Under the pieces are notes generated by a model. The model saw only the letters and a list, made by a program, of their open reading frames with translations. It was not told where the DNA came from and did not search any database. Positions 26,077-47,393 of a stretch of DNA of 64,000 nucleotides are shown here, in pieces. Source of the DNA: Escherichia phage SP27. Location of the stretch: sequence record LC494302.1, one strand, 5' to 3'. The translations under genes were made by a program, and so were the position numbers. Every line of letters starts with the position of its first letter. Position 1 is the stretch's first letter.

Positions 26077-26505
26077 ATGAATATCGAACAAACTATCCGT
26101 GAACATTCTTTCTTCGCTCCAGAAACTGGTCGTGTTATTGAGAGCGTCAAAATCGAAGAACTAATGGTCAATGTTAAATACAAAGAACCAAATGATGAGA
26201 TTAGCAGTACTTTTTGTGCTCTACGTGCACCATTCCGTAATGAAAAAGCTAAGAAACCAGCATATGTTCTTGCCATTGCACTGGGTTGTGTTGTAAAACT
26301 TGCAGTTGATGAAAATCTTCTGAATATTAAAGTTGCACCAAGCAATGACGATGAAAACATTGATTTGAACTTTGATGGTTCTCTTGATGAAGATGTATTT
26401 TTCCAACAGTCACTTGTTTACGACTTCCGTACAGTGACACATTCTCACATCAAGTTCATTAATGAAATGGTTGGGATTGTTGCTGAATACGAAGAATCTC
26501 TCTAA
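26077..26505 (+). CDS. FQxS C-terminal-module family paralog (hypothetical)
   Basis: C-terminal DEDVFFQQSLVYDF motif shared with about 20 other ORFs in the window. Confidence 0.55.
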   Translation: MNIEQTIREHSFFAPETGRVIESVKIEELMVNVKYKEPNDEISSTFCALRAPFRNEKAKKPAYVLAIALGCVVKLAVDENLLNIKVAPSNDDENIDLNFDGSLDEDVFFQQSLVYDFRTVTHSHIKFINEMVGIVAEYEESL

Positions 26506-26516
26506 GTAAATACAAA

Positions 26517-26539
26517 AGCCTCCATAATGGAGGCTTTTA
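26517..26539 (+). terminator. rho-independent terminator
   Basis: agcctcca taat ggaggct plus ttt. Confidence 0.55.
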
Positions 26540-26558
26540 TCACATAAGGAAATGAAAT

Positions 26559-27110
26559 ATGATAGACCAAATTAAAATCCTTACAAAGCAAATCACTGAT
26601 TTTCTTTCTGATAAAGATGGATTTAATACAGAAGTAAAAATGCACGGTGTTAGTGTTGATGTAATTGCACCAAATGGTAATGTAACAAGTTACGACATGT
26701 ATGAATTACTTCTTTATACTCTAGCAGTACGTAAACTAGGTAGTGATATTGAACTCAATATCAATACTGATGAAAGTGGGAATAAAATTTTTGCAATCAA
26801 CACCAGTGCTAAATTCGATATCAGTACTGAAATTAAAAAAATAAATGAAAGTTTTATTGGCTTTAAGCATGAATCAATTCAAAGTGTTTTTATTGGAAAG
26901 CAAACTTCTAATAGTGAATGCCCATATTGTGTAATGACTTTATATAAAGATGGAAACTGGATGCGTCAAGATTTAGTATTTGCTGAACTTCTGTATGCAT
27001 TTACACATGAACTTAAAATCGAATTGGACGATAGTGTTTATTGCTTTAAGAAAATTCGAAATATAACTAAAGATATACAAACCCAACTTAAAGAATTAAA
27101 TGATAAATAA
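26559..27110 (+). CDS. hypothetical protein
   Basis: 183 aa ORF after terminator 26517-26539. Confidence 0.5.
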   Translation: MIDQIKILTKQITDFLSDKDGFNTEVKMHGVSVDVIAPNGNVTSYDMYELLLYTLAVRKLGSDIELNINTDESGNKIFAINTSAKFDISTEIKKINESFIGFKHESIQSVFIGKQTSNSECPYCVMTLYKDGNWMRQDLVFAELLYAFTHELKIELDDSVYCFKKIRNITKDIQTQLKELNDK

Positions 27111-27225
27111 ATATACCAGAAATGGTTAACATATCATGTTACTTTCCTCCCTTACATAATAATGATGCGTTATTATATTTTCATTTTGTTCTTATTCCCC
27201 TTTTGGTACAAAATCATTTTAGTAC

Positions 27226-27249
27226 TGCCCCGATCTTCGGGGCATTTTT
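27226..27249 (+). terminator. rho-independent terminator
   Basis: tgccccg atcttc ggggca plus ttttt. Confidence 0.6.
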
Positions 27250-27270
27250 CTTATCTAAAATTGAGGATAT

Positions 27271-27666
27271 ATGAAGAACAATATTGGAACTTCAATAATT
27301 AAACCACTTTCTTATTACCTTGAAAAATTTAGAAGCACAAATGGTAATAAATTTAATAATATATTTCAGTTCTCTCATAAAGAATATATTACAATTGATC
27401 ATTTTTCAAAGAAACTAATGTATGTAAATGATAATAGTCATATTATTAAATTATCATTCGATATTGAGTTAGATAAATTAACATTTACTGAATACATTAA
27501 TCAAAAAACTTCTTTTTTATGTCAATACAATAGGAAAGTATATAGTAATATTTCTATGTATCTAAATGATGAATATCACTTTCAACAATCTACAATAGAA
27601 GAAGTATTGTTCAGTACTGAAGAATTAAAAGAACTATATTACTGGTATAATTATTTCACATCTTGA
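27271..27666 (+). CDS. FQxS-module family paralog
   Basis: C-terminal NDEYHFQQSTIEEV. Confidence 0.5.
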   Translation: MKNNIGTSIIKPLSYYLEKFRSTNGNKFNNIFQFSHKEYITIDHFSKKLMYVNDNSHIIKLSFDIELDKLTFTEYINQKTSFLCQYNRKVYSNISMYLNDEYHFQQSTIEEVLFSTEELKELYYWYNYFTS

Positions 27667-27721
27667 CATTATTGTGGGTTTATCCTACAATACATGATGA
27701 TGCTGCATTGAGGATAAATTT

Positions 27722-28132
27722 ATGAGTTTAGATTTACACAATGAACTAAAATATTTTTTAGATTTGGATATATCAGAATTGAACCACCACGTCAATCATA
27801 TGACTAGTACTGTATGGTGGTCTAATGAACAAGACGACCCAATTATCCAACTAAGTGATGAATCGTCAATTATGCGATTTTATAAGATTAATTATAAAAA
27901 GAACATCAAGATCACATATGTACCATACAAAAACATACTACTAGTCGAAACACTTAATCCAAGTTCTTTATTAAAAATCACCGATTTAGATACATTACAA
28001 ACAAGTGAATCTTTATTCCAACGTTCATTAGTTGATGATCTTGGTGGTATTACTTTTGAAGATATATTACAATTGAAGAATATGTATAGTGAATTGTTGG
28101 AGATTAAAAACACTTTAGTAATGGGGAATTGA
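27722..28132 (+). CDS. FQxS-module family paralog
   Basis: C-terminal SESLFQRSLVDDLGGITFEDILQL. Confidence 0.55.
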   Translation: MSLDLHNELKYFLDLDISELNHHVNHMTSTVWWSNEQDDPIIQLSDESSIMRFYKINYKKNIKITYVPYKNILLVETLNPSSLLKITDLDTLQTSESLFQRSLVDDLGGITFEDILQLKNMYSELLEIKNTLVMGN

Positions 28133-28133
28133 T

Positions 28134-28538
28134 ATGGTAAGTTTACTAGATATTGATAATACCAGTTTAGTGCTGGTGAAAAAAGGTTTAATTCCAAATT
28201 CTAAAAAAATTGATTATGCTGTTATTGAAACAAATATTGGAAATATCTGGTACGACTCTGAAAGGGATATTGTGTTTAGCTGTGTAGACAGTGATCGTTC
28301 TGAATGTTGTAGAGTCGGTCATGACGGACAATTTGTTTTTGAATTTCGTTATTGGAAGGACGCAAAATTTCACCAAGAACTGGTTGCTTTGTCAAATGAA
28401 CTATATACAGAAGAATCGTTCTTCATGGCTAGTACTATTAATGATTTTGGTTCAGTTACATTTGAGTACTATAAAAAAATATACGCACTATCCAGAGAAG
28501 TTATGAAAATTATCAGAACTGCTGAAGGTAAAGAATAA
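28134..28538 (+). CDS. FQxS-module family paralog
   Basis: C-terminal TEESFFMASTINDFGSVTFE. Confidence 0.55.
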   Translation: MVSLLDIDNTSLVLVKKGLIPNSKKIDYAVIETNIGNIWYDSERDIVFSCVDSDRSECCRVGHDGQFVFEFRYWKDAKFHQELVALSNELYTEESFFMASTINDFGSVTFEYYKKIYALSREVMKIIRTAEGKE

Positions 28539-28539
28539 C

Positions 28540-28917
28540 ATGACTACTATATATGATATTTTGGGTGTTCTGAGTAGAAATATAGATGATGATTTTGTTA
28601 TTGTTCAAGATACTAGAAATACATTTCAACTACCAATAGGTTCACCAGATAGGTTAATTTTTAATAGATACTCAAATGAACTAACTTACATCCATGATGG
28701 AATTGCAATTGTATCAGTTTCTATAAACGACTATACAATACGATATGTATATGACTTCAACGATTATTGTACAAGAATCCACAGTATTGATATTTCCGAA
28801 GAGGAACTATTCCAATTGTCATTGATTGAGAAAAATGTAATAGGAATTACAGAAATTGGTATTATTAAAAAAGCATTAAACTATACAAATATAAGAATTA
28901 ATGGTGGGTGCAGATGA
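28540..28917 (+). CDS. FQxS-module family paralog
   Basis: C-terminal SEEELFQLSLIEKNVIGITE. Confidence 0.55.
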   Translation: MTTIYDILGVLSRNIDDDFVIVQDTRNTFQLPIGSPDRLIFNRYSNELTYIHDGIAIVSVSINDYTIRYVYDFNDYCTRIHSIDISEEELFQLSLIEKNVIGITEIGIIKKALNYTNIRINGGCR

Positions 28918-29369
28918 ATGTTGACGAAATAAAAAATCATTTTGAAATTGCAATGTCATGTGAATTTGACACACAACGTGTTCATGACCCGAAAGAACAT
29001 ATACGCATTTGTTGTGAATTGTCAGATGATTGTAATATTTTTATTGGAAAAACCTATGACATGATCGATCTTTCATGTATAGATCCATTGGAAAGAAAAA
29101 CAAAATATTTATATCTGTACAACACAACATCAGATACGATTGCAATACAACTAATATCAACCACAACATCCCAAAGTTATTATAACATAACTGAGGTTAG
29201 TAGTTTAACGTTAACCGAAGAAGGATTCTTTCAACAATCGCTTATTCGTGAAATTGGTGTTAGTTATGATGAGTTAAATGTATTAGTAGATTGTTTCGAA
29301 AAATTGAGTACTTTTGTATTATCCCTTTTTAATATACAGTCGCAAAATCCAATGGTGGTGAAATGCTAA
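28908..29369 (+). CDS. FQxS-module family paralog
   Basis: C-terminal TEEGFFQQSLIREIGVSYDE. Confidence 0.55.
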   Translation: MQMNVDEIKNHFEIAMSCEFDTQRVHDPKEHIRICCELSDDCNIFIGKTYDMIDLSCIDPLERKTKYLYLYNTTSDTIAIQLISTTTSQSYYNITEVSSLTLTEEGFFQQSLIREIGVSYDELNVLVDCFEKLSTFVLSLFNIQSQNPMVVKC

Positions 29370-29803
29370 ATCCAAGTAAATTTCTCCACTTACTTTCGAT
29401 AACATCAATACCGGATCTTACCAGTGAAACTAATGAATATCGTGAAGCTGGGGTGGTGTCTATGGAACTCGATACATTTGACCACAAATGCTATGTGACA
29501 TATGACCCACCCCGTTATGGTAAAGAACATTCTTCTTTTATTTTTGTATTCGTATACACTGTATATGATAATACAACACTTGATGATGTTTGTATTGACA
29601 CTTACGAAATTTGTGATAATATCATAACTGATGACAACAATAATTCATTTGATATGTCACTATATAACACAGAAGAATCGTTGTTTCAACTTAGTACTGT
29701 TATTGATGCACCATCATTAGAAGATATAAAACAATTTCAAGAACATCTTGACGCAGTTCGTGAGATGTTCTATAATCATTATCCAGAAGTAGAGTTCAAT
29801 TAA
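29363..29803 (+). CDS. FQxS-module family paralog
   Basis: C-terminal TEESLFQLSTVIDAPSLEDI. Confidence 0.55.
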   Translation: MLNPSKFLHLLSITSIPDLTSETNEYREAGVVSMELDTFDHKCYVTYDPPRYGKEHSSFIFVFVYTVYDNTTLDDVCIDTYEICDNIITDDNNNSFDMSLYNTEESLFQLSTVIDAPSLEDIKQFQEHLDAVREMFYNHYPEVEFN

Positions 29804-29817
29804 CTAAAGGTAATAAG

Positions 29818-30078
29818 ATGACTAAAGTAGTTCGTAAACGCCACATGATGAACATGGATGAATTTCGCACATTTGACAAATATCGTACTATGTTTCGTAT
29901 GCTTTCACAGGGCCGTCCAATCGTCATTGTAACAGAGAATTACATGTCACCTGAGATTATGTTTGGTAATTATGAAAAGGTCTTCATGATGTACGTGAAG
30001 CGTGGATTACTTACAATCAAGACATTAGCTGAAGCAACTGATGAAGATATGGATGGTGATAATACCTTTACCATGTGA
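29818..30078 (+). CDS. hypothetical protein
   Basis: 86 aa ORF. Confidence 0.45.
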   Translation: MTKVVRKRHMMNMDEFRTFDKYRTMFRMLSQGRPIVIVTENYMSPEIMFGNYEKVFMMYVKRGLLTIKTLAEATDEDMDGDNTFTM

Positions 30079-30156
30079 GGAAATATATGTCTGAAAAGCC
30101 AAAAGAACCATTAGATCGTGATGATGATTTTTATGACGAACGATATGGAGATGATG

Positions 30157-30408
30157 ATGAGTGAACATAGTGCTGTGCTTAAAAAGATTTTAAAGGAACT
30201 TGATGGTGAGTTTAATGTCACAGAAGAAGAATATCAGCATTGGAAGAAAGGTTTTGAACAACTAACCGAGTATGATAAAGTGTTCAATATGATTGGCGTA
30301 ATTAGCCAGTACTTACTCGGTGGAGGACGTGCAAGTGCTTCAATTCTGGCATCTGCAATCATCTGTACATCACGATGGTGTGATGAAAAAAGTTTGGAAG
30401 ATTTCTAA
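30157..30408 (+). CDS. hypothetical protein
   Basis: ORF in the 30118 frame; start placed at a later ATG (MSEHSAVLKK...); a 25-aa acidic mini-ORF (30087-30164) overlaps upstream. Confidence 0.4.
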   Translation: MSEHSAVLKKILKELDGEFNVTEEEYQHWKKGFEQLTEYDKVFNMIGVISQYLLGGGRASASILASAIICTSRWCDEKSLEDF

Positions 30409-30460
30409 ATAAGATGCTATAATATATTATAGTACCTTAACAATATAAAAAGGATTTTAT

Positions 30461-31321
30461 ATGAAACCTATCCGAGTACTTTCTCTTTTTAATGGAATGA
30501 GTGTGGGATATATGGCATTGCAAGATGCTGGTATCCCAGTTGAAAAATATTATTCATCCGAAATTGATAAGTACGCAATAGCTGAATCTCAATCTAACTT
30601 TCCTGATATTATCCAATTGGGTGATGTAACTAAGTGGAGAGAATGGGATATTGAGTGGGACAAAATAGATTTATTAATGGGTGGTTTCCCATGCCAAGCC
30701 TGGTCAGTTGCAGGTAAACAGGGTGGTTTAAATGATATACGTGGGCAGTTATTTTTAGTAATGGTTGAAATTTTTGATCATATCAAAAGTCTCAATCCTA
30801 ACTTGAAATTTCTGTTTGAAAATGTTAAAATGAAGGAAGATTTCAAAGAATACATTAATAGTATTTTAGGAATCACGCCAGTACTGATAAACTCCCAGCA
30901 TTATACGCCTCACTTCAGGCAGAGATATTACTGGTACAGTACTGATAAGCTTTTCATACCACCTGCATTATCCAATGCACCTAAACTTCAAGATATTATT
31001 GAAGATGGTTGGTACACTGACAGAACCGCTTCGTACTGTATAGATGCTAACTATTTTAAAGGTGGTGATTGTAACCAGTACTTTAATAAATCCAGACGAC
31101 AATTGGTGTTTCGTGACCCAGTGATCAGTCGTCAATATCTATTAGAGAATGGCAAAAGAAATATTGACTATAGACACTTAAGTGTAGTAGAATGTTGTAA
31201 ATTACAGGGTGTTCCTGAAGATTTCTTTAAAGTGTCTAGTAAGACACAAGCATACAAAATGCTTGGGAATGGATGGACTATGCCAGTTATATCACATTTA
31301 CTAAGAGAGATATTCTTTTGA
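30461..31321 (+). CDS. dcm: DNA (cytosine-5)-methyltransferase
   Basis: Motif I LSLFNGMSVG, catalytic motif IV GGFPCQAWSVAGK, motif VI ENV, C-terminal MLGNGWTMPV: canonical C5-MTase order. Confidence 0.85.
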   Translation: MKPIRVLSLFNGMSVGYMALQDAGIPVEKYYSSEIDKYAIAESQSNFPDIIQLGDVTKWREWDIEWDKIDLLMGGFPCQAWSVAGKQGGLNDIRGQLFLVMVEIFDHIKSLNPNLKFLFENVKMKEDFKEYINSILGITPVLINSQHYTPHFRQRYYWYSTDKLFIPPALSNAPKLQDIIEDGWYTDRTASYCIDANYFKGGDCNQYFNKSRRQLVFRDPVISRQYLLENGKRNIDYRHLSVVECCKLQGVPEDFFKVSSKTQAYKMLGNGWTMPVISHLLREIFF

Positions 31322-31803
31322 ACATAAACAAATACCAAACTTATATAAAACGTACAGAAAGTTTCAAACGGCTGGCTGTAAAATCTGAATTAGAATTTAA
31401 TTTGTATTATCCTAATATTGGTGATGAGGTATTTTATTGCTCTCATTCAAAGAATGGAACTTTACTTAAATCGGGTAAAGGAACTATTGTTGATATGACC
31501 GCAAATTTCAGAGGTAAACTTAATGTAATGTACAAAGTACAAGATTCAAGTACTGAGTGTATTCATGAAGTGATGCATAACATACCTGCATATCCAAAAG
31601 ATTTTGTTCAGCTAATATCTCGAAGGGAGAAACCTATGTTTTATTGTGGTTACGACAAATTAACCAAACAAATTATTCCTAATACTATGGGAAAATTTAA
31701 AAGTGATGTGAAATCTGAACTTGAAAAGAAATTTGGCACGTCATGGGAAACTGAAAACGAGTTTATCGAAATTCGTTTAATTGAAATTACTATACTTGAA
31801 TAA
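31273..31803 (+). CDS. hypothetical protein
   Basis: 176 aa ORF overlapping the MTase 3' end; an in-frame TTG at 31318 is an alternative start. Confidence 0.45.
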   Translation: MDYASYITFTKRDILLNINKYQTYIKRTESFKRLAVKSELEFNLYYPNIGDEVFYCSHSKNGTLLKSGKGTIVDMTANFRGKLNVMYKVQDSSTECIHEVMHNIPAYPKDFVQLISRREKPMFYCGYDKLTKQIIPNTMGKFKSDVKSELEKKFGTSWETENEFIEIRLIEITILE

Positions 31804-31808
31804 TTACA

Positions 31809-31833
31809 AATCCACGCATTGCGTGGATTTTTC
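31809..31833 (+). terminator. rho-independent terminator
   Basis: aatccacgc att gcgtggatt plus ttt. Confidence 0.6.
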
Positions 31834-31845
31834 ATAGGTGCATAT

Positions 31846-32361
31846 ATGCCAATTCCTTATGTTAAAATTATTAATAATATTCTCGATTCATGGGAAGATG
31901 TTATTACTGGTAAAAAGAAACCATCACCAGTACATGCTTTATCTGGGAAACTTCAATTCAGAATGTCAAACCAAACTGAAACATTTAATAATCATGATAT
32001 TTGCATTACATTAAAAACACCTGTTAGTATTGTAATTAAAAAAAATAAAGATGATGAATTGACATTATCTATTGGTCGTGATAAAATCATTTTAAGTAAT
32101 TTGTCTGAAGAAGAATTCTTTCAAAGAAGTACTATTATCGATATGAAAGATTTCACATATGAATCATTGGTTGAACTCAATACACGTTTTAACGATATTC
32201 AGGAACGATTGCGACCAATTCTTCGTATCGAAGAAGAAGCCTGGATTGAAAGTATTAGGAAGATGCAAGAAATGTTGAAAGAAAATATTAACAATCTGGG
32301 TAAAGCTACAATGGAATTTGGTAAAACTTTTAAACTGAACTTTTCAAAGGATCGTAAATGA
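31846..32361 (+). CDS. FQxS-module family paralog
   Basis: SEEEFFQRSTIIDMKDFTYESL; start set at ATG 31846 downstream of terminator 31809-31833. Confidence 0.5.
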   Translation: MPIPYVKIINNILDSWEDVITGKKKPSPVHALSGKLQFRMSNQTETFNNHDICITLKTPVSIVIKKNKDDELTLSIGRDKIILSNLSEEEFFQRSTIIDMKDFTYESLVELNTRFNDIQERLRPILRIEEEAWIESIRKMQEMLKENINNLGKATMEFGKTFKLNFSKDRK

Positions 32362-32813
32362 AAATTGATAATTTGATTCATGTTTTAGGATCTTTACATA
32401 AAATATTATCACATCTACATGAGATAAAGAAACTGGGATTTAACATCTCAAATTCAATTGAAACTACATTTAAATATCAATCAATTACTGGTGATGGTTA
32501 TTACATAATCGAATATACTTATGAAACCGATCCAGACTTCTATCCTCTTACGTTGAGAATTTATCCAACAAATCCGAGAGGAATTCACGACATATCATCA
32601 ATTTCACTTGATCCAGATGGTGAAACGAGTATTGAATACAATAATGATTCAAAACCAGAATTTTACATTGATGATATTAAAATGATGTTCAACGATGAAT
32701 ATGTTTTCCAACAAAGTACTGTGCATGATGTTGGAAGTACTAATGGACAATTTTGGAATACATGTTATTATCATATGATTGAAATTTGTAAATTATTAAA
32801 AGGCGATGATTAA
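32358..32813 (+). CDS. FQxS-module family paralog
   Basis: C-terminal NDEYVFQQSTVHDVGS. Confidence 0.5.
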   Translation: MKIDNLIHVLGSLHKILSHLHEIKKLGFNISNSIETTFKYQSITGDGYYIIEYTYETDPDFYPLTLRIYPTNPRGIHDISSISLDPDGETSIEYNNDSKPEFYIDDIKMMFNDEYVFQQSTVHDVGSTNGQFWNTCYYHMIEICKLLKGDD

Positions 32814-33196
32814 TGAAATACAGCATTGAAGTACATTACACTACAGGGGACACTGAAACTGAAGATTCAGTTACCAATACATTGGATGTTCAATGGGAAT
32901 CAAAGGATGAGGCAGTTGTAGCATTACAGTCTTTGAAAGAGCATTGGGTATTCTTTAAGAAACTCGATGATGCATATAGTAACGAACGTGCGACAATAAT
33001 CGATGAAGCCAAACATAAAGAATGGTTTGATCCAATGTCATGTGAATTCTCTTTCTTTGTAAAAATTGGAGATGAAAAAATTCCAGTACGTACACCGTGG
33101 AACGGCTACTTTGAAACTCTTCATAATGCACGAGTTGTCGCTGTTGATAATCCTGAACAAATCGATTTCGATTCATTGGACTGGAAAAAACTATGA
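32813..33196 (+). CDS. hypothetical protein
   Basis: 127 aa ORF. Confidence 0.45.
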   Translation: MKYSIEVHYTTGDTETEDSVTNTLDVQWESKDEAVVALQSLKEHWVFFKKLDDAYSNERATIIDEAKHKEWFDPMSCEFSFFVKIGDEKIPVRTPWNGYFETLHNARVVAVDNPEQIDFDSLDWKKL

Positions 33197-33636
33197 CAGT
33201 ACTGCACCAATTGAAGAAGGTTAAGCATCCAGTTGTATATGAGGACTGGAAACGTCAGAAGCTGATGGGTGATTTTTATTTCCCAAAATCTAAAGTACTA
33301 GCAACGTCAAAAGCTATATACTTGAAATATAAGGATGAAGATTGTTTGTGTATTCAAATGGGATTCCATCCTAAAGTTGGTTTGTTTACAACAAATCAAA
33401 CATTTTATAAATTTAGAATTCAAAAAGATACATTTAGTATTCATATCGAAAAGCATGATGTACAAGATACAATTTATCGTGTGGAAAGTGAGCCTTTGAA
33501 TCTTGTTGAGATTCCGTACAATAATTTAGAAGAAATGTACTTTCAGCAGTTGACAATACAAGAAGACTTTGGTATGATAGGACTTCAAGAGTTAGAGATG
33601 ATTAAACAAATTCGTGATATCTACTTTAAGGAGTAA
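33193..33636 (+). CDS. FQxS-module family paralog
   Basis: C-terminal LEEMYFQQLTIQEDFGMIGLQELE. Confidence 0.5.
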   Translation: MTVLHQLKKVKHPVVYEDWKRQKLMGDFYFPKSKVLATSKAIYLKYKDEDCLCIQMGFHPKVGLFTTNQTFYKFRIQKDTFSIHIEKHDVQDTIYRVESEPLNLVEIPYNNLEEMYFQQLTIQEDFGMIGLQELEMIKQIRDIYFKE

Positions 33637-33638
33637 CT

Positions 33639-33782
33639 ATGCCAGTACGTAACAGTACTTCACGCTTTACGCTTCAACAGAAAGCAGATCTTTTGAATAT
33701 GGCAAACAAAGATTCTAATTTTCACTATCTAGTACTCGGTGGTTCAGTTGAAAAGATTGACCTACGTGAGTGTATGAAATAA
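33639..33782 (+). CDS. small hypothetical protein (47 aa)
   Basis: ATG after AAGGAG RBS; below the ORF-track size cutoff. Confidence 0.3.
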   Translation: MPVRNSTSRFTLQQKADLLNMANKDSNFHYLVLGGSVEKIDLRECMK

Positions 33783-33796
33783 CAAAAGGGGCTAAA

Positions 33797-33967
33797 ATGA
33801 GTTTACGTGAATCATGGGAACAATTTAAAGAAGAGATTGGTTATCGTGGTGTTAAGATTGAACCAATCAATCGTACTGAAAGCATCAAAGCTAGTACTAA
33901 TGGTACTACCTATGATCGTTATGATGAAAAGTATGGTTTACATTCTAAACCAAAGGATACTGAGTAA
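33797..33967 (+). CDS. hypothetical protein
   Basis: AAGGGG RBS then ATG 33797 (MSLRESWEQF...). Confidence 0.4.
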   Translation: MSLRESWEQFKEEIGYRGVKIEPINRTESIKASTNGTTYDRYDEKYGLHSKPKDTE

Positions 33968-34110
33968 TGGTGTATACTAATATTTTTACTGGTATTATGC
34001 GTAAATTTATTAATGGTACTGGATACGTATCTAATGACAACGGTAGTACATGGGTAAAAAATAATACGTCTGAATCTTTAGTAAAAAGTCTTCCGTATTA
34101 TAAAGCTTGA
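33967..34110 (+). CDS. small hypothetical protein (47 aa)
   Basis: ATG overlapping the upstream stop; below the ORF-track cutoff. Confidence 0.25.
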   Translation: MVYTNIFTGIMRKFINGTGYVSNDNGSTWVKNNTSESLVKSLPYYKA

Positions 34111-34135
34111 CACATGAAAATGGAGTATGTATAAT
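34107..34135 (+). promoter_or_regulatory. sigma70-like promoter (TTGACA-N17-TATAAT)
   Basis: ttgacacatgaaaatggagtatgtataat. Confidence 0.55.
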
Positions 34136-34167
34136 ACTCCTATATTAATTAAACGAGGATATACGAA

Positions 34168-34740
34168 ATGGCTGGTGTTGATAAAATTTGTGAATTCAGT
34201 TCAGATTATGAAGGTTACGAAATGTACAAGTCCAAGCGTAATCACATCCAAGTACTGTCAAAGTACCGTAAAGAATTCAGAGGCCACAAAGCAACATTGT
34301 ATGTTTTTGAGAATGGATATTCTGAAGTTTTCACAAGTGGTGGGTACAGTACAGCTAACATGGCACATATCAACCCAAACCCAACTGAAGATGATTGGAA
34401 TAGTGGTAACGCTTTTCGTATTTCAATTTTGAATAAAATGAATCGTTACGACCGTTATTGTACATTCTTTGAAAATATTTCAGAATACAAGCAAGCATTA
34501 AAGAAATATAATCAACGCTTACTAATGAATTATGATTACATTCTTCATGTGCCAACTGTTCCAGGTCAGGTTAATGGTCTGTATACGAATAGTACACATG
34601 ATTTAACTGCGGTGAAGCGTCGCCTCAAACGTATGTTGGGTTGTCGTAATTTAACAATCAAGGTTGTGCGTAATGAATCAATGTATAACTTTTTAGATGT
34701 ACTACACTACACATTGAAGGATAATAATGGAAACGATTAA
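34168..34740 (+). CDS. hypothetical protein
   Basis: 190 aa ORF downstream of promoter 34107-34135, with AGGA RBS. Confidence 0.5.
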   Translation: MAGVDKICEFSSDYEGYEMYKSKRNHIQVLSKYRKEFRGHKATLYVFENGYSEVFTSGGYSTANMAHINPNPTEDDWNSGNAFRISILNKMNRYDRYCTFFENISEYKQALKKYNQRLLMNYDYILHVPTVPGQVNGLYTNSTHDLTAVKRRLKRMLGCRNLTIKVVRNESMYNFLDVLHYTLKDNNGND

Positions 34741-36313: not shown

Positions 36314-36602
36314 ACATGAAGTAATTCATTTTGATGATAAGATCTATATTCCAAATATTGATAGTACTGAAACATATTACCTAATCAATAAGATTATGGC
36401 TGAAACAAATACGTGTTGTCGTCAACAGCCAGGAAAATATGAGTTCAGTCAGACTATTGGTTATTACCGATATGATATGTTAGAATCATTTACAATTGAT
36501 AAGTCTAAAGTTATTGACATTCTTGTACAGAATGGATATAATGAAGAACGTGTAAATAATACAGATTTACCAGTTTCAAAAATTGTTCTTTCTAATAATT
36601 AA
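36306..36602 (+). CDS. hypothetical protein
   Basis: Start placed at ATG 36306 (MNKHEVIHF...) overlapping the upstream stop. Confidence 0.45.
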   Translation: MNKHEVIHFDDKIYIPNIDSTETYYLINKIMAETNTCCRQQPGKYEFSQTIGYYRYDMLESFTIDKSKVIDILVQNGYNEERVNNTDLPVSKIVLSNN

Positions 36603-38015: not shown

Positions 38016-38408
38016 ATGACTGAATCAGAACTACACGAAATGATAGATTTCATTTATGAAATGGTACAAGATAAAAATAACATCAATACAATTGCATCAG
38101 GCCCAAGACAAATTGGTAACCAAATAACATATTCTTTGTCCTTATGGTTACACCCGTGCATTAAGGTTGATTGTTTGTATTTCCGTCCTGATATTGATGC
38201 TTATTATTTTGTCAATCATGATGCATTAATGAAACCACATAATCGTCCAGTTGATGATACCTTTGTGACACACCCATTTTACCTGGCTGATTCCGAAGAA
38301 GATGAGTTTCAAAAGAACACAACGTTAAGCCCAGGTGAAATTTGCATCCCTTACGTACTTAAAGATAAAATGAATCACATCACAGAAGTTATGAAAACAT
38401 GCTGGTAG
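38016..38408 (+). CDS. FQxS-module family paralog (divergent)
   Basis: SEEDEFQKNTTL variant of the family motif. Confidence 0.45.
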   Translation: MTESELHEMIDFIYEMVQDKNNINTIASGPRQIGNQITYSLSLWLHPCIKVDCLYFRPDIDAYYFVNHDALMKPHNRPVDDTFVTHPFYLADSEEDEFQKNTTLSPGEICIPYVLKDKMNHITEVMKTCW

Positions 38409-38438
38409 ATGCAATGAAACTCTGATATAATACAAATA

Positions 38439-38675: not shown

Positions 38676-38676
38676 C

Positions 38677-39165
38677 ATGCCAATTCGTGGTGTACCAGAA
38701 CCATTAATGGAAGTTATTAAGCATGTTCGCATTGGAGATCGAGAAGTTAATCTTCGCCGTAATAACATTTATTACTTTAAAACTTCAGAAATGAGTTCTG
38801 TACAGATTGTCATTGGTACATCTATTAAGATTACTCGTGTACTTGATGGTAGTACTGATTTCGTTGAATATAATGTACTTACTAACAAAGTAATACACAC
38901 ATATAAATGGAGTGGGTATAAAACTATTAAGTATGAGTTTGATGTTGCTAGAACTGAAGAAGAACGATTTATGTTAAGTACTATCAATCCAGCAAACTAC
39001 CCTGACCTTGATACATTTTTGCTAATTTTAAAACTGTATAATGAAGCAAATGGGAAAGCGAAGGAGTATGATAGAATTATGTATGAACGCAAAAAAGAAC
39101 GTGCTCAGAAAAGTTATGATCTTTATGATAACCCATATGTAAAATATAATAAGGGGAGAAAATGA
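38677..39165 (+). CDS. FQxS-module family paralog
   Basis: AAGGAG RBS then ATG 38677; C-terminal TEEERFMLSTINPANYPDLD. Confidence 0.5.
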   Translation: MPIRGVPEPLMEVIKHVRIGDREVNLRRNNIYYFKTSEMSSVQIVIGTSIKITRVLDGSTDFVEYNVLTNKVIHTYKWSGYKTIKYEFDVARTEEERFMLSTINPANYPDLDTFLLILKLYNEANGKAKEYDRIMYERKKERAQKSYDLYDNPYVKYNKGRK

Positions 39166-39566
39166 ATAACGAAGTTCAAATTATCATAACTCCACCTATA
39201 CAAAGTCTTGATGTATCTATTAGTGATTTTTTAGAAAAATATTATGAATGGTTTAATAATGATAATACCATTTATAATCATTCATTACCAGATGGTTTCG
39301 TGGAGCTTATCGAATTAAATTCAAAATCACTATACTTCTGTGTTGAATACAATGATTATATGACAGATGAAGATTATCGCTTTCGTTGTACATTGTATCC
39401 GAATTATTTTTCAATAGGTTATAAAGATTACCAGTACTGTACCACTAACTATAGTGTTGAGGAAGAATTTCAGTACAATTTACTTTATCCTGATTTAGAT
39501 TATACGATTGCAGTACTGTTGACTAAAATCATGGATTTTTATAAAGATAAATATAATGCAGCCTAA
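39162..39566 (+). CDS. FQxS-module family paralog (divergent)
   Basis: C-terminal SVEEEFQYNLLYPDLDYT. Confidence 0.45.
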   Translation: MNNEVQIIITPPIQSLDVSISDFLEKYYEWFNNDNTIYNHSLPDGFVELIELNSKSLYFCVEYNDYMTDEDYRFRCTLYPNYFSIGYKDYQYCTTNYSVEEEFQYNLLYPDLDYTIAVLLTKIMDFYKDKYNAA

Positions 39567-39741
39567 GACATTTGATGAGTGGTTTAATCTACACTATAAT
39601 ATAAATGCAGCAGATATATACTATTTTAAGCTTGAATTGTATATATCATTGCGTAACCCAATTGAGTACTATAACAACATTATCAATTGTGATGATTTTG
39701 GTACATATTTTAGTATAGCCGTTATGGATATTAAGAGATGA
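39556..39741 (+). CDS. hypothetical protein
   Basis: 61 aa ORF. Confidence 0.4.
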   Translation: MQPKTFDEWFNLHYNINAADIYYFKLELYISLRNPIEYYNNIINCDDFGTYFSIAVMDIKR

Positions 39742-39917
39742 CACATGAAGAATGGATGGCAATGATGAAAAAACGTTATGACCAGTTTGGAAATGGATTT
39801 ATTGATGGTCATTTCGATATTTTACGAGACAAATATAAGTTCGAATCATATGTACTAGATGAGAATGGAAATCGTTGGTTCATCTATGAGCTTGCGGTTA
39901 GAGACAAAAAAATATAA
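39738..39917 (+). CDS. MTHEEW mini-protein paralog 1 (59 aa)
   Basis: MTHEEWMAMMKKRYDQFGNGFIDGHFDILRDKYKFESYVLDENGNRWFIYELAVRDKKI; one of five related copies. Confidence 0.5.
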   Translation: MTHEEWMAMMKKRYDQFGNGFIDGHFDILRDKYKFESYVLDENGNRWFIYELAVRDKKI

Positions 39918-39946
39918 TAACCTTTTCCATTGTCCATTGCAATGCT

Positions 39947-39995
39947 TTCTTTACAGAAGAATAAATGAAACACTTAATTGAACTGGATACATAAA
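39947..39995 (+). repeat. duplicated upstream segment preceding MTHEEW paralog 2 (copy of 40461-40514)
   Basis: ctttacagaagaa...acacttaattgaactggatacataaa versus ctttacaaaagaa...gcacttaattgtactggatacataaa. Confidence 0.55.
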
Positions 39996-40172
39996 ATGAC
40001 ACATGAAGAATGGATAGAGTCACTAAAATATAAACATGATCATTTTGGATTTGGTATACGCCAAGGCCATTATGATGTTTTGAACGATAAAAAAACGTTC
40101 GAATCATTGGTTTTGGACGAAGATTCCAACCACTGGTTCATCTACGAGCTTGCTATTAGAGATAAAAAATAG
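39996..40172 (+). CDS. MTHEEW mini-protein paralog 2
   Basis: MTHEEWIESLKYKHDHFGFGIRQGHYDVLNDKKTFESLVLDEDSNHWFIYELAIRDKK; conserved upstream repeat. Confidence 0.5.
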   Translation: MTHEEWIESLKYKHDHFGFGIRQGHYDVLNDKKTFESLVLDEDSNHWFIYELAIRDKK

Positions 40173-40177
40173 TAAGA

Positions 40178-40513
<336 letters not shown>

Positions 40514-40514
40514 A

Positions 40515-40697
40515 ATGACACACGAAGAATGGATGTCCAAACAGCATAAAGAACATGACTGCTTTGGGAATGGCATTCGTCAGGTACATTATGATATATT
40601 AAGAGATGAAAATCTTTTCAGGTCATATGTTTTGGATACCAGAAAACCCTGGTTTATATGCGAACTGGCATTTAGAAAGTCAAATAATCAAAACTAA
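40515..40697 (+). CDS. MTHEEW mini-protein paralog 3
   Basis: MTHEEWMSKQHKEHDCFGNGIRQVHYDILRDENLFRSYVLDTRKPWFICELAFRK. Confidence 0.5.
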   Translation: MTHEEWMSKQHKEHDCFGNGIRQVHYDILRDENLFRSYVLDTRKPWFICELAFRKSNNQN

Positions 40698-40713
40698 ACA
40701 AGGAATACAAAAA

Positions 40714-40932
40714 ATGGAAACAACTTTATTTGAAGTTATTCAATCATTAAAACCTGAAGATGAGGTTCAAGTACTACTACATGGTTATCGTGTAAAAGGT
40801 ACTGTGGTTTTAGTCAATGATACAACATTGGTTATTACAGAAACAAACCCATATGATAGTAATCAACTTGCCAATATCCATATCGATATCACTGGAATTA
40901 TTGGTGTCGGTGTATCTAAAACACTTGCATAA
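40714..40932 (+). CDS. hypothetical protein
   Basis: Start placed at METTLFEV (40714) to avoid overlap with paralog 3. Confidence 0.4.
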   Translation: METTLFEVIQSLKPEDEVQVLLHGYRVKGTVVLVNDTTLVITETNPYDSNQLANIHIDITGIIGVGVSKTLA

Positions 40933-40985
40933 ATCATTAATTCATTATATAATGATTATCACTGGTTCTAGATGAGGATAATATT

Positions 40986-41258
40986 ATGCATTTTGAAAAA
41001 TTCAACGTAAATCGTAACACACGCATTGAAGTTCTTTATGAAACTCAAGACACCATTAGTATTCGTACAAGTAGTGGGGATGTATATCATGACTGTACGA
41101 TTGGCTGGGAACAGGGAAGAACGCGTAGTGCAGTATTTGATAATTATCGCTTTTATCAAGGAGACACTACGATTTGGCCTGAATACGTAGAAGATATTGC
41201 GTTTGAAGATGAACATAAAGATGAATTTATCAAATTTAATCCTCAAACTGAATCATAA
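40986..41258 (+). CDS. hypothetical protein
   Basis: 90 aa ORF. Confidence 0.45.
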   Translation: MHFEKFNVNRNTRIEVLYETQDTISIRTSSGDVYHDCTIGWEQGRTRSAVFDNYRFYQGDTTIWPEYVEDIAFEDEHKDEFIKFNPQTES

Positions 41259-41275
41259 ATAATGGGACATCACAT

Positions 41276-41388
<113 letters not shown>

Positions 41389-41395
41389 CCAAAAT

Positions 41396-41497
<102 letters not shown>

Positions 41498-41502
41498 AAA
41501 CC

Positions 41503-41663
41503 ATGACGCATGAAGAATGGATGAATGACATTAATTTTAGATATGCAGGTTTCGGTAACTGGAGAAAGTATCATTGGGAAATCATGTCAGACCCAGCAGA
41601 ATACGATAAACTTATAAACCATGAAGCGTATCCGTGGTTCTTTATTGAAATAATGGTACGAAC

Positions 41664-41667
<4 letters not shown>
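41503..41667 (+). CDS. MTHEEW mini-protein paralog 4 (54 aa)
   Basis: MTHEEWMNDINFRYAGFGNWRKYHWEIMSDPAEYDKL...; below the ORF-track cutoff. Confidence 0.45.
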
Positions 41668-41829
<162 letters not shown>

Positions 41830-41837
41830 AAAAAAAG

Positions 41838-42251
<414 letters not shown>

Positions 42252-42308
42252 CTAAATAATTCAGTACTGAGGATATTAATATGTTTAAAGATGAACGTCC
42301 AGATTTGT

Positions 42309-42346
<38 letters not shown>

Positions 42347-42421
42347 GAATTCCACAATCAGACGTATATGGTGTAAGTTACGTCGATGCAATCCAGAACA
42401 AGATCTCTGGTACTCTAGGAA

Positions 42422-42631
42422 GTGGTGAATGTTAACCTAGACGGGTTTGATAATTGGACGATAGGCAATTATTACTTGACTAGCAGGTTGAAACTAGAGG
42501 TGACAGTCCTTCACCAAACTGGAAAACCGGATGGACTTTTATTTAAAAGGGTAAGGCGTGGAAATATGTTTACAGAAGTTGCTTTTAGTAGCCTGTACGC
42601 CCCACGTCAAGGTAGCCGAAAGGCAAGTTAA
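42422..42631 (+). CDS. hypothetical 69-aa ORF (alternatively part of a non-coding RNA)
   Basis: ORF lies in an unusually GC-rich segment between promoter 42318-42346 and terminator 42636-42692; coding status uncertain. Confidence 0.3.
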   Translation: MVNVNLDGFDNWTIGNYYLTSRLKLEVTVLHQTGKPDGLLFKRVRRGNMFTEVAFSSLYAPRQGSRKAS

Positions 42632-42635
42632 AACG

Positions 42636-42692
42636 GATGGTTATAAAGCTGAATTAACAGCGGCGTTTAAAAGCGTCACCATCCATTTTTTT
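42636..42692 (+). terminator. terminator-like long hairpin
   Basis: ggatggt...accatcc (7 bp closing a 35-nt interior) followed by attttttt. Confidence 0.4.
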
Positions 42693-42708
42693 AATTAAAG
42701 TTGGTGAT

Positions 42709-43473
<765 letters not shown>

Positions 43474-43488
43474 TTCACATGATATAGG

Positions 43489-44161
<673 letters not shown>

Positions 44162-44180
44162 AGAGGTACTTCGAGTATGC

Positions 44181-44304
<124 letters not shown>

Positions 44305-44307
44305 ATA

Positions 44308-44394
<87 letters not shown>

Positions 44395-44449
44395 GACTGC
44401 CAAACAGCTTGAAGTACTTTGTAGTGCTGCACCTATGCCGACACTTGGC

Positions 44450-44550
<101 letters not shown>

Positions 44551-44562
44551 TATCTTACTTCT

Positions 44563-44652
<90 letters not shown>

Positions 44653-44658
44653 TACACT

Positions 44659-45084
44659 ATGAAATACAACATTGTTAAAATGGTGAACTATGTATTAAAA
44701 AACAACGCATGGTCACTGCATGATGTACAATTAGAAGATATTGGTGAAGTTAGAGTATTTTGCTATGATCCAGATTTGAATCAAACCACAGATTTGAGTA
44801 AATGTTTTAATATTTTTCTTGGTTATGAATTCAATAATCATTTTTATTCATTTGATGTGTATTTTGAAAAAGTTATATTCAGAAGTTATGAATGTGATAA
44901 TGAAGATTATGATTATGATGATGAATCAATTGAATTGAATGTTAACGATATTGATACTGAAGAAAAATTCTTCCAGTACTGCCTCCTTAACGACATATTA
45001 GGATTAACATTTGAGGACATTAAAGCTATACTTAAAGTTCAAAAGTTGATTCCAGAAGAGGTACTAAATCCATTAAATGACTAG
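44659..45084 (+). CDS. FQxS-module family paralog
   Basis: C-terminal DTEEKFFQYCLLNDILGLTFEDIKAIL. Confidence 0.55.
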   Translation: MKYNIVKMVNYVLKNNAWSLHDVQLEDIGEVRVFCYDPDLNQTTDLSKCFNIFLGYEFNNHFYSFDVYFEKVIFRSYECDNEDYDYDDESIELNVNDIDTEEKFFQYCLLNDILGLTFEDIKAILKVQKLIPEEVLNPLND

Positions 45085-45442
45085 TCTAATAGTACGTATA
45101 ATGCAAGATGTTTGTAATAACCTTTATACAGGCAATTTTGACGATCCGAACATAAAAATATTATGTTATGATGGTTTTACAATGGTACATCCATCCTATT
45201 CAAATAATATCTACGTAGCATATACAGGTGAAAATCTATTATATCAATTTGATATATATAGTACAATGACAAAGATAATTTTGGATGCCTCTAAACCAGC
45301 AATCTTTATTGCTTCTCATGATTACCATTACACTGAAGAATCACTATTTCAGTACTCAATGATTAATGACATTGGTGGGTTGACATTGGATGAGGTTAAT
45401 GCTATACTAGCTGTCTCACGTTTGGTTAAAACCCACAATTAG
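45077..45442 (+). CDS. FQxS-module family paralog
   Basis: C-terminal YTEESLFQYSMINDIGGLTLDEVNAIL. Confidence 0.55.
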   Translation: MTSLIVRIMQDVCNNLYTGNFDDPNIKILCYDGFTMVHPSYSNNIYVAYTGENLLYQFDIYSTMTKIILDASKPAIFIASHDYHYTEESLFQYSMINDIGGLTLDEVNAILAVSRLVKTHN

Positions 45443-45451
45443 GAGATTCAT

Positions 45452-45643
45452 ATGTTCTGGAATTTATTATGCTTGTTTGGTCGTACATTGGTTCTTGCTA
45501 TTATTCATACACCTGGTATTCGTAATTATGTTTCTTATGAATTTAAGAAAAATTATCACAACAATACTGAAGTTCGTACAACTAAGATGTGCAAAGACTT
45601 CAAGGTAGATGTTCCACCATTCAAGAAGTACGAGGATGAATAA
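45452..45643 (+). CDS. hypothetical protein
   Basis: 63 aa ORF with hydrophobic N-terminus. Confidence 0.4.
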   Translation: MFWNLLCLFGRTLVLAIIHTPGIRNYVSYEFKKNYHNNTEVRTTKMCKDFKVDVPPFKKYEDE

Positions 45644-45927
45644 TGGAATTCATTGTTGCACCTGATGAACTTAAAACATTCACGTTCAGAGATAATAACA
45701 ATTATCCTTATACAAATCATTCATTGAATTCATTACATGTTATTGCAATCATTGCATCTGAATACAGGGATAATCCATGTATTGATTTTAAAACCACTGA
45801 TGGCGAATATACATGGGTGTTCCCAAAAGATAAATATAGTTATCAAGGGGCAGTAGAAATTCGTGACTCGATTCTAAAACAAATCGAAGATGGAAATACT
45901 CATCCTAAACTAAACACTCAGTACTGA
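45643..45927 (+). CDS. hypothetical protein
   Basis: 94 aa ORF; ATGA coupling. Confidence 0.45.
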   Translation: MEFIVAPDELKTFTFRDNNNYPYTNHSLNSLHVIAIIASEYRDNPCIDFKTTDGEYTWVFPKDKYSYQGAVEIRDSILKQIEDGNTHPKLNTQY

Positions 45928-45940
45928 AATCGTTTAACCC

Positions 45941-45996
45941 GATAGCTTCTAGTCAGTACTGATTCCTCCTTATGTATAGAAGCTATCACTTTTTTA
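45941..45996 (+). terminator. terminator hairpin with CAGTACTG in the loop
   Basis: gatagcttcta...tagaagctatc 11-bp stem then acttttttt. Confidence 0.5.
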
Positions 45997-46116
45997 CGTA
46001 TAATGATATTACCCTCAAATTCATTATATTCGTTACCCTCTAACAGTATCTTTTTATTCCTCTTGGATGCTGTAATTTAGAAGTTGACTTTTTAACTTCT
46101 ACTGTGTTATACTTAA

Positions 46117-46144
46117 GGCTGATTCGATGAATCGGCCTTTTTTC
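46117..46144 (+). terminator. rho-independent terminator
   Basis: ggctgattc gat gaatcggcc plus ttttttt. Confidence 0.55.
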
Positions 46145-46161
46145 TTATATAGGTGAATGCA

Positions 46162-46581
46162 ATGAGTTATTTGTTTACTTTAATTGATAAGTATGTTGAC
46201 ATTGTATACCGTCAAGTTTGTAGTGATACGTTTGAAACAAAAAACCCAATTAGAGATGGCATTTTTGATGTTGTCGTTGGATCATTTTTGAATGGATACA
46301 CAGAGACATTATACAACAGTAATAATATTTTTATTTCAGTTCAATCCAGACATACATCAGACTATGCTGTTAGCATTGATATTTGGGAAAATAATATAGA
46401 AATAGATATAACGGAACATACTAACATTCATGTTGATGATACATTTAATCAATTAACTGAAGAAATGTACTTGCAGTTGAATTTTGTACATGATCTTACA
46501 AATATCAGTTATGATACATTAAGGAAAATATGTTTTCTTAGTGGGGTGATCCGTAGTAATATGAGTAAGGATAGGAAGTGA
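46162..46581 (+). CDS. FQxS-module family paralog
   Basis: C-terminal TEEMYLQLNFVHDLTNISYDTL; AGGTG RBS. Confidence 0.5.
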   Translation: MSYLFTLIDKYVDIVYRQVCSDTFETKNPIRDGIFDVVVGSFLNGYTETLYNSNNIFISVQSRHTSDYAVSIDIWENNIEIDITEHTNIHVDDTFNQLTEEMYLQLNFVHDLTNISYDTLRKICFLSGVIRSNMSKDRK

Positions 46582-46582
46582 A

Positions 46583-46999
46583 ATGTTAAAAATTCCACCT
46601 AAGTCGTTAACACATCTTATTGAATGTGGTGTAATATTTTCCGAAGGTGATACCTCATCATACACATTGGTCGATGAACCTTATAATTTTTCATACCAAT
46701 CTTATAAAAATAATTCTAAAATTTCTTGTAGATATGCTGAAAACATATTAATAGATGTTTCGTTACATAATGTTCCGAAATTTTACATTGATATCTTTGG
46801 TGATTCTTTGACAATTCGAACATATGATTATTTTATTAATAAAGACCTCTTGAGTCTTCCAATTGAACATGATACTATAGATTCAGAGATGTTCTTTCAA
46901 CTATCAACAGTTTACGATTTACAGGGTTTAACTGTTGAGCAGTTGAATGGAATATTTGAGATTTCACGAAACATACGAAGCAGGAATAAAAATGTCTAA
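46583..46999 (+). CDS. FQxS-module family paralog
   Basis: C-terminal DSEMFFQLSTVYDLQGLTVEQLNGIF. Confidence 0.55.
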   Translation: MLKIPPKSLTHLIECGVIFSEGDTSSYTLVDEPYNFSYQSYKNNSKISCRYAENILIDVSLHNVPKFYIDIFGDSLTIRTYDYFINKDLLSLPIEHDTIDSEMFFQLSTVYDLQGLTVEQLNGIFEISRNIRSRNKNV

Positions 47000-47393
47000 T
47001 ATTTTAAATGAAAAAACAGTTGATGTTGTTATTGGTGTTCTTAACACCGCAACTTCATTTCAGAAGAAACACAGTGTTGTATACTTTGGTGAAGATTGTT
47101 GGCTGAACTATACTAATAATTCGTTTATAATTCGTGTAGAGGCTGATGATATTGGATTAACCGTTCAGGTAGGATGTGCCAAAACTGACAAACAAATCAC
47201 TGTCATTGTTGATAAACTTACGTCTTCTTTTTATGATAGTATAGATGATTGTGAACACTATAGTTCAACATTTTATGATACAGAAGAAGAACATTTTATG
47301 GAAAGTACTGTTCAAGAGTTAGCTATTCCATATAAGCTAATGAAAGCCGTGAGTGATTTAATTTTAAAATATAAAAAAAATAGGAGTTACTAA
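46992..47393 (+). CDS. FQxS-module family paralog
   Basis: C-terminal TEEEHFMESTVQELAIPY; start placed at ATG 46992. Confidence 0.5.
   Translation: MSNILNEKTVDVVIGVLNTATSFQKKHSVVYFGEDCWLNYTNNSFIIRVEADDIGLTVQVGCAKTDKQITVIVDKLTSSFYDSIDDCEHYSSTFYDTEEEHFMESTVQELAIPYKLMKAVSDLILKYKKNRSY

Follow-up and report, generated by a model that had tools for sequence, protein, structure and literature searches.

A clade-specific multigene family of small proteins with a nearly invariant helix motif in RaK2-like jumbo phages

Lineage-specific expansions of small proteins have been described in the jumbo phages, for example a zinc-ribbon family of about 35 copies in Bacillus phage G, and they have been interpreted as regulators or as conflict genes (Iyer et al., 2021). 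The present work concerns a stretch of 64,000 nucleotides from Escherichia phage SP27 (sequence record LC494302.1), called the window in its whole length, in which 18 genes, and probably three more, code for small proteins that share a nearly invariant motif near the C-terminus. This family is large, clade-wide and undescribed, and expansions of its type are already known from jumbo phages.

The likeness to the zinc-ribbon family of Bacillus phage G lies in the many diverged copies of a small domain within one giant genome, restricted to a clade and with no function assigned to them; in contrast, the family of the window has neither a zinc ribbon nor any Pfam match, has another fold, and keeps a nearly invariant helix motif beside an N-terminal part that is unrecognisable between paralogues. 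A further likeness is found among the large eukaryotic viruses, in the MGF110, MGF360 and MGF505 families of African swine fever virus and the ankyrin and BTB-kelch families of the poxviruses, which also form tandem arrays near one genome arm, change their copy number by birth and death, diverge fast, and play early, non-structural, host-directed roles. In those families, unlike that of the window, roles in host range and immune evasion have been shown experimentally, and we know of no relation of sequence or fold between them and the family described here.

When 8 kb of the region are compared with known genomes, the identity is 99.8% to Escherichia phage vB_EcoM_phAPEC6 (phAPEC6) and 97–99.6% to PBECO4, 121Q, UB, G17 and other Asteriusvirus genomes (~350 kb); judged by its sequence, the window belongs to the PBECO4/121Q/phAPEC6 group of jumbo coliphages (Asteriusvirus). 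Its G+C content is ~33%, nearly all the genes are on the + strand, and every gene of the region is annotated as "hypothetical protein." The members of the family, named throughout by the first position of their open reading frame (ORF), are the following, with their length in amino acids (aa), the corresponding phAPEC6 product and the E-value given by the profile hidden Markov model (HMM):

26077..26505, + strand: family member, 142 aa; phAPEC6 gp134c; HMM E 1.4e-13; full-length orthologue RaK2 ORF184 (47% identity)
27271..27666, + strand: family member, 131 aa; gp132c; opens a six-gene tandem array; HMM E 3.4e-15
27722..28132, + strand: family member, 136 aa; gp131c; strong sigma-70-type promoter 30 nucleotides (nt) upstream; HMM E 1.9e-17
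28134..28538, + strand: family member, 134 aa; gp130c; motif variant FFMAS; HMM E 1.4e-20
28540..28917, + strand: family member, 125 aa; gp129c; HMM E 3.8e-14
28908..29369, + strand: family member, 153 aa; gp128c; HMM E 2.2e-17
29363..29803, + strand: family member, 146 aa; gp127c; the most acidic, isoelectric point (pI) 4.1; HMM E 7.4e-16
31846..32361, + strand: family member, 171 aa; gp121c; basic, with a C-terminal helical extension; HMM E 1.6e-16
32358..32813, + strand: family member, 151 aa; gp120c; HMM E 1.2e-13
33193..33636, + strand: family member, 147 aa; no coding sequence in the phAPEC6 record; HMM E 3.7e-20
38677..39165, + strand: family member, 162 aa; gp103c; basic, with a C-terminal extension; HMM E 1.3e-11
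41898..42251, + strand: family member, 117 aa; gp093c; promoter 30 nt upstream; HMM E 1.2e-15
44659..45084, + strand: family member, 141 aa; gp088c; HMM E 2.8e-20
45077..45442, + strand: family member, modelled, 121 aa; gp087c; AlphaFold predicted local distance difference test (pLDDT) 89.9, predicted template modelling score (pTM) 0.83
46162..46581, + strand: family member, 139 aa; gp084c; motif variant YLQLN; HMM E 5.2e-18
46583..46999, + strand: family member, 138 aa; no coding sequence in the phAPEC6 record; HMM E 4.1e-19
46992..47393, + strand: family member, 133 aa; gp083c; motif variant HFMES; HMM E 2.5e-18
61509..62027, + strand: distal family member, 172 aa; HMM E 4.8e-10
38016..38408, + strand: probable divergent member, 130 aa; SEEDEFQKNT; no HMM match (E ~2); hhalign 62% (three-gene subgroup)
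39162..39566, + strand: probable divergent member, 134 aa; VEEEFQYNL; hhalign 62%, P 8e-5, 40 columns
42709..43098, + strand: probable divergent member, 129 aa; ADEADEFQKRT; AlphaFold pLDDT 74.8

All 21 of these ORFs, which the original prediction had taken for paralogues, are present, and for 18 of them the kinship is secure. A profile seeded with 45077 alone was iterated over all six-frame ORFs of the window (296) and reached convergence in the third round, with the first 18 ORFs of the list recovered (E 2e-25 to 5e-10) and the next best ORF at an E-value of 0.09; when enlarged with 187 relatives from outside, it recovered the identical 18 with no additions. Because both profiles give the same 18 and the next ORF lies at 0.09, the family is neither a product of low complexity nor of chance, the objection that the prediction had raised against itself and that this clean gap rules out. 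An all-against-all phmmer comparison gave direct links for 11 of the 21 ORFs. The remaining three, 38016, 39162 and 42709, are recovered by neither profile (E > 0.7) and carry a variant of the motif shorter by one residue (EE-[DE]-EFQ); aligned by hhalign together with their orthologues against the family, they give a probability of 62% (P = 8e-5) in an alignment of 40 columns around the motif, and are probably divergent members. In the part compared, phAPEC6 has the same 17 members, with an additional one, gp039c, outside the window. Two clear members, 33193–33636 and 46583–46999, lack coding-sequence annotation in the GenBank record of phAPEC6 (MK817115).

The proteins are small (117–180 aa) and mostly acidic, with a pI below 5 in 14 of the 18. 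Their motif, [ST]-E-E-x-h-F-Q-x-S-[TL]-[VI]-x-D-h-G-x-h-T-h-E-[DE], where h is a hydrophobic residue, is nearly invariant: over 205 sequences, and in the residue numbering of 45077, the conservation is [ST]86 (T 65%, S 16%), E87 90%, E88 90%, F91 99%, Q92 87% (M 12%), S94 92% and D98 74%, with the further positions [FYL]90, [TL]95 and [VIL]96 and, after D98, h, G, x, h, T103, h, E105 and [DE]106. Variation in the motif helix is limited to positions 89, 93 and 97, which form one narrow stripe. A conserved C-terminal module does exist as predicted, but its length is somewhat greater than the 30–40 residues first proposed, since the profile extends 35–40 residues upstream of the motif and covers 56–67 positions, reaching into the last strands of the sheet.

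As to its distribution, an exhaustive profile search of 1.84 billion (1.84e9) cluster representatives gave 176 clusters at E ≤ 0.001, all of proteins of 60–220 aa with the motif near the C-terminus; a sample of the 176 was traced to its origins, in RaK2-like jumbo phages or their metagenomic relatives, the divergent clusters being found either in metagenomes or in records of ~350 kb that carry the label E. coli and are evidently phage genomes. The consensus module, compared by tblastn with 50,697 phage records, matched RaK2-like jumbo phages only, nearly all of 337–378 kb, with Klebsiella, Salmonella, Pectobacterium, Cronobacter, Erwinia, Serratia, Yersinia and Escherichia as hosts and one record labelled Xanthomonas. 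As far as these searches reach, the family is confined to the RaK2-like clade.

The module had been put forward as one belonging to no recognised family, and the databases agree. A Pfam scan of 20 window proteins (the 18 secure ones and two borderline) gave no match, and among 100 members no weak Pfam family recurred; ten members had no match in NCBIfam or PADLOC-DB, the latter being a weak test, as it covers defence and not anti-defence proteins; and sequence searches of the PDB gave no relative, whether made with single members or with profiles, the 100-sequence profile finding nothing at E ≤ 5. The predicted fold, moreover, has no significant neighbour among solved structures. In PHROGs each window member matches a group of its own at 1e-56 to 1e-122, with weak cross-hits to other groups through the motif; these groups (17453, 24941, 24510, 23719, 38573, 22160, 28118, 30841, and others), all entered as of unknown function, contain the same proteins but are kept as separate families, so that the unity of the superfamily is not recorded there. 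Nor is the family described in the papers on phAPEC6, RaK2, CBB, JP4, Sharanji and fEgEco12, in the survey by Iyer et al. (2021) or in a 2026 review; the RaK2 paper puts the share of paralogues at ~10% of the gene products, and for CBB 22 paralogous ORFs are listed, while the CBB supplement has no searchable paralogue table.

The arrangement of the genes points to old tandem duplication, followed by birth-and-death changes of copy number and fast divergence. Tandem arrays occupy 27271–29803 (six genes), 31846–33636, 44659–45442 and 46162–47393, and within them the genes are translationally coupled, with operon-like intergenic spacings of +1, +1, −10 and −7 nt. Between paralogues, the 30 nt that code for the motif have a mean identity of 53% (maximum 80%) and differ in their synonymous codons, while the DNA repeats are short, 31–39 nt at 64–81% identity; this rules out a recent recombination or gene conversion of the module, and the comparison of nucleotide identities that had been proposed as a check gives no sign of it. 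In RaK2, the syntenic 40 kb contain at least 10 (10–11) members, compared with 18 in the window, in the same order and with the same neighbours (topoisomerase, clamp loader, methyltransferase, tRNAs), and the full-length positional orthologues include ORF184 for 26077; a metagenomic relative has 11 members within 20 kb. It is from the ~53% identity of the module, the tandem arrays and the order kept in RaK2 that duplication with divergence is deduced. The median identity to the RaK2 orthologues is 29.5% for seven family genes versus 53.6% for 41 neighbouring genes, that is, the family diverges about twice as fast as its surroundings. Paralogues, tandem arrangement, restriction to a clade with variable copy number, and faster divergence are thus found together, as in a lineage-specific multigene family.

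With respect to expression, the window was scanned for the sigma-70 consensus (at least 11 of 12 matches, with the expectation taken from first-order Markov simulations), and 30 near-consensus promoters were found on the + strand and two on the − strand, versus 3.1 ± 1.9 expected. Two of them lie 30 nt upstream of family members, and others precede the arrays:

27663..27691, + strand: sigma-70-type promoter before member 27722, TTGACA-17-TACAAT
41839..41866, + strand: sigma-70-type promoter before member 41898, of the repeated promoter family TTGACTAAATAGTTCAGTACTG...TATAAT

The repeated promoter unit is conserved outside its two hexamers (CTTGACTAAATAGTTCAGTACTGATATAATG), and is found at 36505–36545, 41830–41870, 42239–42279, 42309–42349 and 43080–43120. 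The T4-type late box TATAAATA does not occur in the family region; its single + strand occurrence, at 9513, is outside it. That occurrence directly precedes ORF 9532–11952, whose orthologues, gp158c of phAPEC6 and ORF160 of RaK2, are virion proteins, and which is a late structural gene lodged among replication genes. The family proteins themselves are not components of the virion: the published mass spectrometry of the phAPEC6 particle (62 proteins) includes none of the products compared (gp083c, 084c, 087c, 088c, 093c, 103c, 120c, 121c, 127c–132c and 134c), and in the RaK2 record no member is marked as virion structural, while five neighbours are. The idea that the module targets proteins for packaging finds no support in these data, and the other roles that had been suggested, anti-defence or host take-over, are plausible from the early-promoter context and the fast divergence.

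The interpretation toward which we are somewhat inclined is that of an early, cytoplasmic, host-interaction multigene family specific to the RaK2-like jumbo phages. This would suppose that: (i) transcription of the arrays begins early in infection, at sigma-70 promoters of the host type; (ii) the proteins are soluble and cytoplasmic; (iii) the members act as early host-interaction factors, in host take-over or counter-defence; (iv) the members have in the invariant hairpin a common core, or a common interface, of their fold; (v) and finally, the lineage-specific surface of the sheet gives each paralogue its own target. Several points weigh against it. No homology ties any member to a function; the early timing is suggested by the promoter consensus and the cytoplasmic location by composition; with only positions 89, 93 and 97 variable, as would fit a helix mostly buried within the fold, the motif helix may be conserved for structure alone rather than for a partner held in common; and the order of the arrays is the same from genus to genus, with ~97–99% identity among most Asteriusvirus genomes, whereas classic anti-defence islands are less stable than such arrays.

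Approximately twenty genes of a single family amount to ~4% of the gene count of a ~350-kb phage, kept across the RaK2-like phages of the host genera named above, in genomes that are more than 80% unannotated. One superfamily with a diagnostic motif unites many "hypothetical proteins" and PHROGs, which simplifies annotation; an early, non-structural gene set is the obvious place to seek the functions of host take-over or counter-defence in phages that are under development for therapy; and the motif is a convenient starting point for pull-downs and mutagenesis.

The structural models bear both on this interpretation and on its alternatives. From 52 aligned paralogues and orthologues, AlphaFold gives for 45077 one compact domain (pLDDT 89.9, pTM 0.83) composed of a helix (4–15), an antiparallel sheet (main strands 26–29, 44–51, 54–61, 64–68 and 76–79), the motif helix (87–96) and a last helix (104–114); within this domain the motif helix, the element of highest pLDDT, is packed together with both the sheet and the N-terminal helix. 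The residues [ST]86 with E87/E88, and T103 with E105/[DE]106, resemble helix N-caps according to the general rules of helix capping. In the model of 42709 (pLDDT 74.8) the order is helix 7–17, four strands, an extra helix 72–80, a strand 83–87, the motif helix 92–101 and a helix 108–126, which resembles the main family with one helix more.

A serious alternative, if in our opinion an unlikely one, is that the motif is merely the folding nucleus of a fast-evolving small fold, and that the paralogues, with unrelated or decaying roles and no common partner or interface, are by-products of tandem duplication in a genome under little constraint of size. This would fit with the fast divergence and with the properties of the modelled helix: about three quarters of its circumference is conserved, it begins with a classic N-cap ([ST] as the cap, E at N1 and N2), its hydrophobic positions F91, [TL]95 and [VI]96 are maintained, and its pLDDT is the model's highest. 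Since the variable positions are limited to a narrow stripe, the motif helix must be mostly engaged, and within the model it certainly packs against its own sheet. However, the polar residues E87, E88, Q92 and S94 are retained by identity at the frequencies given above over several genera, which exceeds what the maintenance of a fold usually needs, and because of this a shared partner or an oligomer interface through the motif is possible, and the helix may also form an interface. In addition, each paralogue has a full-length orthologue in other genera, with the N-terminal part under constraint, which argues against decay.

A further possibility, rather improbable, would be that the invariant acidic helix-loop-helix docks every paralogue on one hub, while each paralogue, by the specific surface of its sheet, would capture a host protein of its own. 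The hub may be a host machine (RNA polymerase, a protease or the ribosome) or one encoded by the phage. Should this be the case, the phage would encode in the array a whole panel of adaptors or inhibitors whose fold is not yet seen in solved structures, the counterpart in a bacterial virus of the multigene families of substrate adaptors in large eukaryotic viruses.

Much less credible, and largely refuted, is the modular shuffling by which the original prediction accounted for the family, that is, unrelated effector heads recombined onto one mobile module for docking, targeting or oligomerisation. What speaks for it is that the N-terminal parts are indeed unrelated-looking in sequence: once the motif is cut off, phmmer leaves the 18 of the window in 16 unlinked groups and the 197 of the family in 94, and an iterated search with the N-terminal part of 45077 recruits just 16 of the 197. 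Nevertheless, the models of 45077 and 42709 consist of a single domain, and the searches of predicted structures in BFVD give matches along the full length: those at E ≤ 0.05 are all uncharacterised proteins of Escherichia phage UB, PBECO4, CBB, fHe-Yen9-04 and GAP32 (a RaK2 protein falls just past the threshold, E 0.07), and the paralogue models align mostly over 120–140 columns at 13–29% identity with template modelling (TM) scores of 0.42–0.76. Some paralogue pairs of the window can also be aligned by BLAST over 100–107 residues, the members have similar lengths with the motif at an equal relative place, and the tandem genes, the low nucleotide identity of the module and the lack of long DNA repeats likewise contradict the joining of heads to a tail. 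Within orthologue groups, the N-terminal part is about as conserved as the C-terminal one (72% vs. 75%, 80% vs. 61%, 44% vs. 38%), so the N-terminal parts are constrained, though differently in each paralogue. According to the models, therefore, the family protein is a single alpha/beta domain, and the N-terminal helix and sheet, for which a common fold is predicted, have demonstrably drifted past sequence recognition between paralogues; as the search with the N-terminal part recruits so few, it is on predicted structures that the common fold rests. The only apparent fusion in favour of shuffling is P0066, a database protein of 115 aa in which half of a RecQ-1-like helix-turn-helix (Pfam PF21220, E 3.7e-12) is joined to a C-terminal module of the RaK2 ORF184 type; lying at 193–540 of a 1-kb metagenome contig with 1.4x coverage, and with only half a domain, it is probably an assembly chimera, and we give it no weight.

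That the module might be a signal for entry into the capsid, for packaged or injected proteins, or a mark for the prohead protease is hardly tenable, for although the virion of phAPEC6 contains an inner body and many of its proteins are unassigned, no member is found among its 62 virion proteins or the RaK2 virion proteins of the region, the promoters are of the early type with late ones absent, and the motif is predicted to be a folded helix rather than a terminal peptide.

Four resemblances to known proteins or sites were considered and set aside. The MAM33/p32/gC1qBP fold, which forms acidic doughnut-shaped trimers, gives structural scores below significance (TM ~0.26); its Pfam family (PF02330) has no match in the 20 window proteins nor among the families listed for 100 members (E ≤ 1), and the family proteins, unlike MAM33/p32, are ~50 residues shorter. 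A likeness of the hairpin to Im9 (E 0.25–1.4 with the core profile) is lost with the 100-sequence profile, which has no PDB hit at E ≤ 5, and the Pfam family Colicin_Pyocin, of the DNase immunity proteins, has no match among the members scanned. The beta-clamp-binding peptide, QL[SD]LF, binds the cleft of the clamp through a flexible terminus or loop; some members have the look-alikes QLSLI or QYSLL, and half have Q-x-S-T-V, but clamp binding is unlikely, as the stretch is confidently predicted to be a packed helix and the key positions misfit. The same reasons, again from the model, apply to the resemblance to a site like that of tobacco etch virus (E-x-x-Y-x-Q|S).

Other elements lie among the arrays. 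A gene for a DNA cytosine-C5 methyltransferase is located amid them, at 30461–31321, and keeps its position in RaK2 (64% identity). Six tRNA genes are dispersed among small ORFs in 40200–44642: Gly-TCC, Ser-TGA, a Ser with the unusual anticodon ACT, Met-CAT, Asn-GTT and Thr-TGT; in RaK2, tRNAs are likewise found at the syntenic place. A second, smaller family of paralogues, formed by five ORFs of 54–66 aa that start with ...MTHEEW(I/M), is found at 39738–39917, 39978–40172, 40497–40697, 41503–41667 and 41664–41828, and because its starts and upstream DNA share nucleotide repeats (87–96% over 42–91 nt in the closest pair), its duplication is recent.

Lastly, six palindromic hexamers, including CCATGG, CAGCTG and AGGCCT, are absent from the window, and another, AGTACT, is in great excess, with 153 occurrences in 1–64000 versus 16.2 ± 4.3 expected (9.5-fold), the sole outlier of the 64 palindromic hexamers, the runner-up being at 1.65-fold. 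It is found in the three reading frames and between genes, approximately every 420 bp (e.g., 41854, 42333, 43104 and 59288). The 8-mer CAGTACTG occurs 26 times versus 0.68 expected, and is also present inside the spacer of a repeated early promoter.

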